A stretch of 64,000 bases of DNA from Mobula hypostoma (lineage: Eukaryota), in NCBI RefSeq assembly GCF_963921235.1, contig NC_086097.1, positions 37,760,001-37,824,000 on the forward strand, given 5' to 3'. Each line of letters begins with the position of its first letter. Positions within the stretch are counted from its first letter, which is position 1. A program made the translations under genes and the position numbers. Below are positions 20,628 through 54,530 of the stretch, piece after piece. Below the pieces are notes generated by a model. It was not told the DNA's origin. It worked only from the letters and a program-made list of their open reading frames with translations, and did no database searches.

Positions 20628-20884
20628 AGATATGACTGAAGTCGTTCACATAAAAGATAGGAAAGAAACAATTCATGAGTTAAAATATTCTCCTGATGGA
20701 GCGTATTTGGCTGTGGGATCAAATGATAACTCCATTGATATCTATGGAGTTCTGCAGCGATACGAAAAAGTTGGCGAGTGTGTTGGATCTTTGAACTTCA
20801 TCATACACATGGATTGGTCAACTGATAGTAAATACTTACAAACCAATGACGGTTCTGGAAAAAGACTGTTTTACAACATGTCAT
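20628..20884 (+). CDS. EML5: Internal coding exon of an EML5-like (echinoderm microtubule-associated protein-like, WD40) gene
   Basis: Acceptor ttcttcctgttacag| and donor T|gtaagc. Open frame [85 protein letters not shown]. From recall of the family, [15 protein letters not shown] and GKRLFY fit EML5 better than EML6. Confidence 0.88.
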
Positions 20885-21027
20885 GTAAGCGTATCATCTA
20901 TACATCTAATTGCATGTTTACTTTTTCATAATTTGACTGTGCAATGTTTCATTGATCCTAAGCAGTGGTGGTTTATTTTCAAAGCATCCCTTCCAAACGC
21001 CACTTTCCAAGAGTCAGTAGAGTTTTG

Positions 21028-21350
21028 AGTGGTGGCACAGTGAAAGTGCTGCCTCGTGGCTCCAGTGACCCAGGTTCCATCCTGACCGCCACTGGTCTTT
21101 GTGTGGAGTTTGCACGTTATCCTCAGGAATACCTGGGTTTTCTCCAACATACCAAAGTTATTTGTGATTCGCAGGTAAATTGGCCACAATAAATTGCCTG
21201 TTGTGCATGGGTGAGTTATAGGGTCTGAGAGTGGGGTGGGAACAAATAGAAGGAACTGATGAGAATTGTGGGGAATAGGTTACAAGGAAAATTCGTGGGA
21301 GAATGAAAGCTGGCATAGATTAGATGGTGTTAAAATGGCCTCCGTTCTGC
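21028..21350 (+). mobile_element. V-SINE (HE1-like), decayed
   Basis: A box ggtggcacagtg, B box ggttccatcc and V domain tgtgtggagtttgcacgtt. Confidence 0.7.
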
Positions 21351-22699
21351 AAGGAAATGAATCATGCATAAATATATGAAGTGGTATGTCAAAAAGTTTG
21401 TTTCCATTTCAATTTGTATTTCATCTTTTATCTTGAACAATTTGCCCACCCAGAATTTGGCTCAATTAGCTCCCTATAGGAAGGAAACATTTTGGAGGGG
21501 GACCTTAGTTGGATTCTGGAGGGATAAGAGAATGCAAGAATCTATTATAATAGATGAGAAATTGATTTCTGAACTCAGTACATCAGATTGTGGTGCAGGG
21601 AGAGGCCTATGCTCATGACAGGAAGAGGTGAGTTTAATGGTTTGGGAGAAAGCATTCCCATTCCTTCTAAAGTTGAATCTGCTACAAGCAATTCTTTGGC
21701 CACAAATTTCACGCCAAATTCTGGCAAATGGTCTATTCTATCGGAAGGTTTGTGTCTTTGAAATTATGTATGACTCTGAGATGAGCTTTGAACTATGAAT
21801 TTATATCAATGTTAGACTACCCACTTCTATCTCAGTGAAACCACCTGATGCAGCTCCACTAATTTCCCTGAATCCATCTTAAGAATTTGGTCTATCTCTC
21901 TTCCTTGCCTCCAACCAATGTACTCCCAAATTCCCAATTTTACTACTTCCACTGTTGTGTAGACTCTAAAATCTGGTTTTATCACTTTTGGTGGCAGTAT
22001 TTTTAATTATTCATTTAGATGATGTTTCTGTGAAACACCTCAGCACATTTAACAACAAAGAGCACTTTTTAAATAACAAGATTGGAAGAATCAACATGCC
22101 TGCAGGGAGCAAGATGTTCCCCTGATCAACCCATAGTGCCCATAATCCATCCGTGCTTCTCCAATTTAAAACAGCCAATGACAATTGCGGTTGGGTATGA
22201 GAATTCTGAAGTTTTAACATATCTATAGTTCATACTCCTGTACCTCTGATTACACTTGACCCTTGAATTGATGGTATCTCTCTAATGTATGAGAGAATAG
22301 TAGATACCATATTATCATGGCAAAACATTCTAAAGTGAGATGAGCTTAAGATATAAATAATCCTTAAGTAAACACAAGGAAAGATTGTAATTTCCATTTT
22401 CTGTTTTGGAGTTTTATTTCTTTTCCATTCCAGTTTTCCTGATGACCTTTCCCCTCCATCCTCCTCTCACCCCTGCGTGCTTCTCACTGGTCTGCCTTCC
22501 ACTTTTCTGTAAGCTGCCATTCTGTACGTACTCTATATCTCATGTTGCTCTGCTTTCTGTGTGCATGGCCTTTATTTGTGAAAAAAATGCTGATGTATAT
22601 TTTTGTTCTATAACTAATATTTTAGAGCCACTGCAATTTTTAACTACAATGAAATTTTGAGCTTTCCTACCATTAAGGACATCTTCAAAAGCTGATGGT

Positions 22700-23035
22700 T
22701 GAAAAAGGCAGCATCCACCTTTAAGGATGCTCACCAACCCAGGACATGCCCTCTTCTAATTACTACCATCAGAGAGGGGGTACAGGGGCCTGAAGACATA
22801 CACTCAATGTTTTATGAACAACTTCTTCCCCTCTGCCATCAGATCTTTGAATGTGCAATGAACCCATGAACACTAGCTCCCTATTTTTGCTCTCTTTTTG
22901 TACTACTTTCTTATTTTTTATATATATATTTCTTATTGTAATTTATAGTTAATTTTATTTTTTTGTGCTGTACTGCTGCCACAAAGTAACAAATTTCACT
23001 ATCTGTAATATTAAACCTTATTCTGAATCTGATTC
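22700..23035 (+). mobile_element. Rex-Babar 3' tail
   Basis: aaggcagcatcc...ttcttcccctctgccatcag...taaaccttattctgaatctgattct. Confidence 0.75.
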
Positions 23036-23431
23036 TATCTTCATTCATTATTTTCAGCTAATTTCTCTGTAGAATGTACTCTTGTCTACCAGATTCTTTT
23101 CATTATCCCTCACTGGTACAGAAACCATGTTAACCATGACTAAAGAATAATTGCCATAACGTTTCTTTCAATTTTTGTTTTACTTATTTCATGCAAACAG
23201 CCTGGATTTTGCCAGGAATTACACATAGGCCAGGTAGCATTTAACCTCATAAGTGTCAGCAAATTTGGAATTCTTTACACATGGAAATCCTGAATTTGTT
23301 GGCCAGGCTCCACCAGTAATTTCCTGACAAAGAGCAAGATCCTGCTGGAGAATCTGATTGTGGACCCCATGACAGATTAGTTATTCATCTGAATGTTGAT
23401 TTTATGGCTGTAATGAAGACGTAAATATGTC

Positions 23432-53130: not shown

Positions 53131-53335
53131 AACGTGAAAAATGAAAAAAGTAACATGAACAATTATTAAATATTATAAAAACTTAAAATACTAACATTTA
53201 ACTCAACAGTCACTGAAAGGTATTGACTTATTAGTATTCCATTATTGTTTAACACTGTGATTAAATTTGCAATTTTAATCATTCAACAGTCCTAATGTAT
53301 GTAATGGGTAAAGGACACAATATCATTATACTTAC

Positions 53336-53404
53336 AGGATTCCCAACAACTGAAAGCTCAGTCAAGTTTGAAAGTGAATCAAGTTTTTCCAGTTCACCCA
53401 TATC
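53336..53404 (-). CDS. LRRC9: LRRC9-like coding exon
   Basis: ttttgtacag|...|gtaag, 69 bp, phase 0 to 0. DMGELEKLDSLSNLTELSVVGNP (last LRR ending in GNP), in frame with the previous exon. Confidence 0.85.
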
Positions 53405-53867
53405 CTGTACAAAATAAAAGAACTATATTGAAAATAGTTTTATTGGATATAACAACATGTATTACAAGAATATCTTCAGTAACCATATTGAAAATCTTGT
53501 GTTAAAATATAGTTTTCTCACCTTGCTACTAAATGGATCTGTTAAATTACATATACCAGATGAAGAACCAATTAGCATGCACATTTTGTCAGAACAAGTC
53601 TATTCCATTCAACACCAGAAAAAATAAGCTGTGAGGCAGCAGCATATCTGACTGTGCCACAGTATCACCACTGTGCATACTTCTCAGATCTGAACACCTC
53701 CATTCTTGCAGTCAGGGTAATTCAGTTAGCTGAGTGGGCACTTATCATTTTAATGAAATCCCCAACCATGCGATTTGTTGAATGGATTATTTTCCTCAAA
53801 TGGCAAAACCATTTCTGGGGAAAAGGTATTGATAGAAAGTCTGAATCTTTAGTTAAAAAGCAACAAA

Positions 53868-54185
53868 CATGTTGCTGAAGGAACTTAGCAAGTCAGGCTG
53901 CATTTGTAGAAGGAAATGGATAGCTGATGTTTCAGGTTAAGATTCTTCATCCGGACAGACAGGAGAGTGCCAGTGTAAAAGGTGAGGGGAAGGGGTGGAG
54001 CCAGAGTGAGCAAACAACATGTGAGCCCTTTTCTCACCCATATCTTTCAGTCTAGATTAAAGGTCTTAACCCAAAAACATCAACAGTTCATTTCCCTCCA
54101 TAGATATTGTATGAAACAGAGCTCTCCCTGCATTTTGTGCTTTTTTTTTTGCTCCATATTCCGGTACCTGTAGTCTTTTGTGTCT
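53868..54185. mobile_element. Inverted pair of Penelope-derived short repeats
   Basis: Minus copy at about 53868-53960 and plus copy at about 54045-54185, each with a decayed hammerhead box. Confidence 0.6.
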
Positions 54186-54312
54186 TCATTTAAAAGAATG
54201 TTTTCATGTTCCAGGTTCATGAACAATATAGTCTGCATTCAGTTCAATTTGAGAAACATTTAAAAAAAACATAAGATCAGAAAAAATCAAAACAAACTCA
54301 AAAATTCTTCAC

Positions 54313-54530
54313 CTGGATTTTATTTCCACCAAGGAAAAGCCGCTGTAATTTTACCAATCGATACAAGTTGTTGAGGTCTCGCATTCTGTTCTCCTCTAAG
54401 TGGAGTTCAACAAGAGAGCTTTGGTCCATGAAGGAATTTTCATGGATGATTTTGACTCTGTTTCGTTCCAGTGATAATTCAGTAAGGTAATAAAGGCGGT
54501 CAAGCCCTTCAATCTGACTAATAAAATTAC
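54313..54530 (-). CDS. LRRC9: LRRC9-like coding exon (leucine-rich repeats), first exon visible in the window
   Basis: Acceptor tcatcatag|, donor CAG|gtgaag, 218 bp, phase 1 to 0. (G)NFISQIEGLDRLYYLTELSLERNRVKIIHENSFMDQSSLVELHLEENRMRDLNNLYRLVKLQRLFLGGNKIQ contains three LxxLxLxxN repeats and resembles the LRRC9 C-terminal LRRs. Confidence 0.85.

Follow-up and report, generated by a model that had tools for sequence, protein, structure and literature searches.

The 64,000-base stretch of ray DNA analysed here (C1:37760001-37824000, hereafter the window) contains the 3' end of an LRRC9 gene on the minus strand, faced by one EML5-like exon on the plus strand. We consider it very likely that the locus as a whole is made up of a conserved gene block around LRRC9, an intact EML5 gene to the right of it and a 3.5-kb DNA copy of part of EML5 to the left of LRRC9. 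The lone exon beside LRRC9 is an ordinary leftover of duplication, a single piece of the real EML5. The apparent nesting of LRRC9 in an EML5 intron, proposed in a first-pass annotation made from the window alone, is an illusion created by the window edge, and the nested reading is refuted.

A single EML5 exon in the window

The EML5-like exon occupies positions 20628-20884 (plus strand) and codes for approximately residues 396-481. It is preceded by an AG (20626-20627) and followed by a GT donor (20885) in phase 1, with a frame open over 85 codons, confirming the earlier description of a clean internal exon that ends in a phase-1 donor without a stop. As the frame is open and both splice dinucleotides are kept, the exon copy is not formally disabled. 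Its translation matches the Pfam family Beta-prop_EML_2 with 102.3 bits (curated cut-off 90) and is 91.9% identical to residues 396-481 of skate EML5 (P0011). Identity ranges from 88 to 94% for EML5 of cartilaginous fish, compared with 73-76% for nearly all proteins named EML6, the exception being one catfish entry (82%). A search of solved structures returned EML1 (4CI8) and generic WD40 proteins only.

Six matches were obtained when the genome was searched with the exon, one of them a 98% identical copy 542 kb downstream on C1, on the same strand. Identity is thus 98% to the gene on C1, compared with 73% to a gene on C22. The latter, which gave six matches to full-length EML5 at 63-76% identity and adjoins another reticulon match, is EML6-like; EML6 is linked to RTN4, and a C22 gene beside a reticulon fits EML6. 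By these comparisons, the window exon and its parent gene are closer to EML5 than to EML6.

Copy and parent exon differ by three bases (copy-specific sites 20668, 20764 and 20881), all nonsynonymous and none synonymous. The resulting changes, A14T, K46E and P85S, are unique to the copy, and the parent agrees with the homologues at each site: alanine or valine in 120/120 at the first, lysine in 120/120 at the second and proline in all 100 that align at the third, a further 20 being unaligned there. The polypyrimidine tract of the copy is also altered, having gained purines relative to the parent.

No companion to this exon was found. With the parent's own next exon as query, the best match in the window had an E value of 2.4, and the patterns W[AS][ST]WTC and WTC[VI] gave zero matches in all six frames, in agreement with the first-pass failure to find the next exon. 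The parent's previous exon gave a best E value of 0.036 in the window, which represents a WD40 self-match on the orphan exon. Since the genome searches may miss short exons, the ground to the left was inspected separately, and 20,000 of the ~21,000 bases to the left of the window gave neither an EML5 nor an LRRC9 exon. Across the window and these 20 kb upstream, EML5 is represented by one exon only and not by a multi-exon gene with a start codon. A stretch at 17925-18125 that resembles an exon and has a GTAAGT motif was considered as a second captured fragment and dropped, being unique in the genome and without a Pfam match.

EML5 lies to the right of LRRC9

With full-length skate EML5 as query, 25 genome matches were listed: 18 in the gene on C1, six on C22 and the window exon. 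The 18 are colinear on the plus strand, run from C1:38236187 (residue 1) to C1:38419329 (residue 1928 of 1966) and include the second copy of the exon, placing the gene 0.46-0.64 Mb downstream of the window on the same contig. Residues 1929-1966 were not located in this search, which, like those for LRRC9 and PCNX4, was a stricter first look that may miss short exons. The parent locus carries the previous exon (residues 350-396) and, 4.8 kb past the donor, the next exon (GKEITNKEEIKDVQWATWTCV).

Taken by itself, the window does suggest that LRRC9 lies antisense within a giant EML5 intron, as its one clean internal exon on the plus strand lacks a successor and faces six minus-strand LRRC9 exons. 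However, genome searches with the full EML5 and LRRC9 proteins leave this reading virtually no probability. EML5 residues 1-1928 are all found to the right of LRRC9, the first EML5 coding exon being 319 kb beyond the most 5' LRRC9 match, and the gene has its own copy of the exon together with the exon that follows. Furthermore, no earlier EML5 exon was found to the left of the window exon, where PCNX4 fills the ground. Consecutive host exons on both sides of LRRC9 would mark a nested gene; only a duplicate exon lies on the left. OMG, EVI2A and EVI2B are nested antisense genes inside NF1, and LRRC9 is like them only by its look within one window: unlike them, it is not flanked on both sides by host exons in gene order. 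With the nesting claim being false, no open question is touched.

LRRC9 occupies a conserved gene block

Six minus-strand exons form the 3' end of LRRC9 in the window, as first annotated. From the sixth from last (54313-54530, approximately residues 1255-1326 of P0122), they continue through 53336-53404, 45580-45705 and 42008-42185 to the penultimate coding exon (40278-40452) and the last (39877-39913), which ends in a TGA stop. All six have AG acceptors (6/6) and the five internal exons have GT donors. Spliced together they give one open frame, whose 266 residues are all identical (266/266) to the C-terminus of P0122, a devil ray LRRC9. P0122 may be from the same species, so that it fixes the exon edges but is not independent support. 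Across most of its length, P0122 shares 75-88% identity with five further LRRC9 proteins from sharks and rays. Of 15 protein matches, 14 are named LRRC9 or LRRC9-like and one is unnamed.

A genome search with LRRC9 gave 29 matches, 27 of which are colinear on the minus strand (C1:37800271-37916826), while the remaining two reflect LRR similarity of 29-37% elsewhere in the genome. The gene spans ~117 kb with at least 27 matched exons. To its left, PCNX4 lies on the minus strand at C1:37721353-37739547, and no PCNX4 exons were found within the window; to its right, a reticulon domain is encoded on the plus strand at C1:38160945, in a gene named RTN1 here by position only. Hence, the order in the ray is PCNX4(-), LRRC9(-), reticulon/RTN1(+), followed by the intact EML5(+). 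The orphan exon sits 41 kb from the first coding exon of PCNX4 and 19 kb from the LRRC9 stop. A CpG island near C1:37750000, 30 kb to the left of the orphan exon, is probably the PCNX4 promoter. A CpG-rich stretch within the window (32750-33250) was considered as a promoter and rejected: it is a 560-base repeat, with 39 other copies at 94-96% identity among the best 40 of 8399 candidates.

The human block reads RTN1-LRRC9-PCNX4, with the same relative orientation as in the ray. The ray differs from human in the position of EML5, which follows within ~75 kb of the reticulon gene in the ray and lies tens of Mb away in human. All three neighbours of the vertebrate RTN1-LRRC9-PCNX4 block are shared by the ray. 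The first-pass annotation had left open whether the gene was an ortholog or a paralog; LRRC9 is a single-copy ortholog in conserved synteny with PCNX4 and RTN1, and a relocated paralog does not apply. Two published reports show the same neighbours, with rtn1a, lrrc9 and pcnx4 named within one region in sockeye salmon (PMC11628665) and RTN1, LRRC9 and PCNX4 at neighbouring markers in a cattle table (PMC10119448).

The orphan exon is part of a duplicated genomic block

The window and a 24.5-kb region surrounding the parent exon share a single stretch of non-repeat DNA in direct orientation, at 19051-22572 on the plus strand (BLAST end 22575). It corresponds to C1:38320955-38324736 inside EML5, in the same orientation and 542 kb away. 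The two copies differ by 154 substitutions over 3488 aligned bases (95.6% identity) and 15 indels, with a 285-base insertion present in the parent and missing from the copy. The block keeps intron flanks on both sides of the exon and contains no other EML5 exon. When the block was searched against the genome, the best 40 of 493 candidates included a single long partner, ruling out a multi-copy family on that scale.

Segmental duplications are genomic (intron-containing) copies with a minimum length of 1 kb and a minimum identity of 90%. With 3488 aligned bases at 95.6% and intron on both sides, the block is a new instance of this common kind; it resembles partial intrachromosomal duplications carrying a gene fragment in being a genomic copy that exceeds 1 kb and 90% identity, retains intron flanks, lies on the same chromosome and has no promoter found. 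Compared with a typical segmental duplication it is small, at 3.5 kb with one exon, and it lies 542 kb away from the parent and not in tandem with it. The earlier alternative of a truncated EML5 duplicate was correct as to a duplicate but not as to a truncated gene: the copy is a fragment of 3.5 kb containing one exon, for which neither a promoter nor upstream exons were found. As intron flanks are retained, the block is not a processed pseudogene. In the definition given by Morais and Harrison (PMC2718932), pseudogenic exons carry a frameshift or premature stop. The orphan exon is like those described there in being individually duplicated, with substitutions of the decay type; it differs in having no frameshift or stop and in lying outside its parent gene, between two others.

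Contigs from two organisms contain the duplicate

Contigs from 4 of 24 listed runs were compared with window positions 17000-23600. Run X1, possibly the source of the assembly itself, holds both versions of the left end (records 1 and 2) and bridges the right junction (record 7). Run X5, from another organism (B) that is ~2.1% diverged (27 differences over 1304 bases), has two versions at 21991-22219 among the contigs listed (records 29 and 30), and its record 31 crosses the right junction, reaching 37 bases past it on the shorter side. The left junction is bridged by none of the contigs listed.

A false duplication or misjoin in the assembly would fit copies that are 99% alike across the middle of the block and a left junction left unbridged by these contigs. 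However, the copies are separated by 154 differing sites and 15 indels, including the 285-base insertion, X1 holds both versions side by side, and contigs of a second organism also include two versions and one that crosses the right junction, such that an artefact has a close to negligible probability. Since the right junction is bridged by DNA contigs of two organisms, the block is not a misassembly. Furthermore, the two versions and bridged junction in the X5 organism establish that the duplicate is real and that the copying predates the split of organisms A and B.

In two further contigs, from runs of one study guessed to be RNA, the match stops at 20884 and the remaining sequence lies outside the stretch, as expected of spliced EML5 message. 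These contigs show two and one differences, which are the exact parent-versus-copy counts over the same spans. By these difference counts alone, both fit parent alleles.

Origin of the copy

The left edge of the block abuts a 5'-truncated LINE on the plus strand (18127-19051) with a reverse transcriptase remnant and an intact 3' end, which we take to be of the RTE type. This LINE copy is 88.5-89.7% identical to 19 others, which have a median identity of 93% among themselves. No target-site duplication was found at the junctions of the block or the LINE, where a 7-base word near both block ends may be due to chance, and neither a poly(A) tail at the right junction nor long microhomology at the junctions was detected. 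The intron flanks, together with the lack of a poly(A) tail and target-site duplication, indicate that copying took place at the DNA level. A 3.5-kb piece of EML5, consisting of one exon with flanking intron, was thus copied as DNA into the interval that separates PCNX4 from the 3' end of LRRC9. The likely route is repair synthesis that switched template to the locus 542 kb away on the same chromosome.

The start of the block coincides precisely with the intact 3' end of this same-strand LINE, an unlikely spot for a random breakpoint, and arrival of the block by retrotransposon 3' transduction or co-insertion with the LINE could account for that position. Such an arrival is nevertheless rather unlikely, given that the parent locus lacks a LINE of this kind upstream of the block and that the block sequence is on none of the other LINE copies examined (0/19); the right junction, lacking both poly(A) tail and target-site duplication, also argues against it. 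Alternatively, the LINE may have provided the break site, or it may have inserted afterwards and removed the block's original left edge. Transduction concerns the origin alone and would be compatible with the remainder of the proposed DNA-copy model.

Low divergence in the middle of the block

Divergence between copy and parent is uneven along the block. It amounts to 8.6% at 19051-19870, 0.7% at 19871-20560 (5 differences in 690 bases), 1.2% in the exon, 2.6% from there to 22000 and 7.2% beyond, the segment edges having been chosen after seeing the data. The two ends together stand at 8.0%, as against 0.7% in the middle, and none of 2000 shuffles reached as low a value for a 690-column window. 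An identical run of 242 bases was reached in 1/2000 shuffles. The locally depressed divergence is beyond chance. Relative to the divergence between organisms, the ends are at ~3.9 times and the middle at ~0.35 times that value. A decayed repeat is unsupported as the cause, the middle tract being non-repetitive in genome and window searches.

Constraint on the parent alone could do no more than reduce the rate by half (P = 1e-7). With half the rate of the ends, 8.2 changes are expected in the exon and three are seen; synonymous changes number zero versus 4.2 expected (P = 0.015). A contig of the outgroup (B) differs from A at 43 sites over 19603-21469, where 38.7 differences are expected under neutrality and 21.1 under constraint, a total count for one contig, with X5 record 28 possibly a mosaic of both copies. 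The test against constraint on the middle gives P = 2e-5, or 0.02 with the upper bound for the flank rate.

The probable cause is interlocus gene conversion with the parent across 542 kb, later than the separation of organisms A and B: the middle of the copy would have been overwritten at a later time, with 19871-20560 as the candidate tract. A patch of 66 bases just before the exon, lying between two low-divergence tracts, holds seven differences; a single conversion tract fails to explain it, and two tracts or a slippage event would be needed. Conversion between intrachromosomal segmental duplicates is established (Dumont, PMC4467073). The present pair is like the cases treated there in its patchy identity, best read as short-tract transfer; it differs in that the basis for conversion here is uneven divergence within one genome plus one outgroup contig, and not shared polymorphisms.

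By title, none of the papers listed for EML5 with LRRC9, for LRRC9 with PCNX4 and RTN1, or for conversion in elasmobranchs concerns this locus; those listed for EML5 with LRRC9 are expression studies. The copy is a trap for annotation and for read mapping, because EML5 reads may land between PCNX4 and LRRC9. It would also be of modest use as a small natural record of how ectopic gene conversion can act over half a megabase in the genome of a cartilaginous fish, datable against the split of the two related organisms.

Fate of the orphan exon

As no promoter or partner exons were found, the orphan copy most likely makes no protein and drifts. A functional copy would be an exon of an unannotated plus-strand transcript, starting for example at the CpG island at C1:37750000, or an intronic regulatory element that has been kept, with selection explaining the well-preserved middle. 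This would be in keeping with the open frame, the retained GT and AG, the deficit of exon changes (3 versus 8.2), the non-repetitive middle tract and the CpG island 30 kb to the left. It is nonetheless very unlikely: each of the three exon changes replaces a conserved residue and none is synonymous, the reverse of protein-level selection; the divergence of the middle between B and A fits neutrality better than constraint; and the two listed RNA contigs fit the parent. There is also a slim chance that the exon is a long-lived partner of EML5, with repeated conversion across 542 kb keeping it and the intron upstream of it nearly identical to the parent, and that it is spliced into an unannotated transcript running on the plus strand from the CpG island beside PCNX4, head-on to LRRC9. 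If true, this would represent a traceable case in which a single exon evolves in concert with its parent and contributes to a young chimeric RNA in rays.

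Sequence flanking the duplicated block

The parent EML5 gene on contig C1 carries a 285-base repeat insertion in an intron (L008:4584-4874 of the sequence around the parental exon; C1:38321583-38321873 of ray assembly G000), which is absent from the copy. A repeat related to this insertion is found at window 9138-10215. Just before the LINE that adjoins the duplicated block comes a high-copy element (17104-17930), which displayed high depth when run contigs were mapped and looks like a MITE derived from a DNA transposon. The stretch at 17925-18125 is unique in the genome and has GTAAGT near 18036 as an exon-like donor motif. 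It matched no family and is also present in the second organism.

Retroelements and CpG-rich sequences

Two retroelements are located in LRRC9 introns. The first (48485-52614, plus strand, antisense to LRRC9) is frameshifted and retains endonuclease and RT remnants; we take it to be L1-like. The second is a relatively intact LINE (60205-63693, minus strand), which we take to be CR1/L2-like. Its open frames comprise 551, 235 and 195 codons, and the 195-codon frame is similar to an esterase-type ORF1. A fragmented minus-strand element with RT and a GIY-YIG-like remnant (23459-25331) resembles a Penelope-like retroelement. Short remnants at 8667-9075 and 56559-57367 are similar to LTR-retroelement integrase and protease frames.

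The CpG-rich repeat of ~560 bases at 32637-33197 has sharply defined ends and contains open frames in both orientations. It is present in very many copies, which are 94-96% identical, and gave no Pfam match of note. A CpG island left of the window (L012:1-750; C1:37750000-37750750), 10 kb upstream of the first PCNX4 coding exon, is probably the PCNX4 promoter.

Reticulon genes adjacent to EML5 and the EML6-like gene

On C1, a reticulon gene (38160945) lies ~75 kb before EML5 (38236187), both on the same strand. The EML6-like gene and another reticulon gene are arranged tail to tail at C22:56743954-57176466. It appears that an EML5/6-RTN1/4 paralogous linkage has been retained, with its orientation changed on C1.
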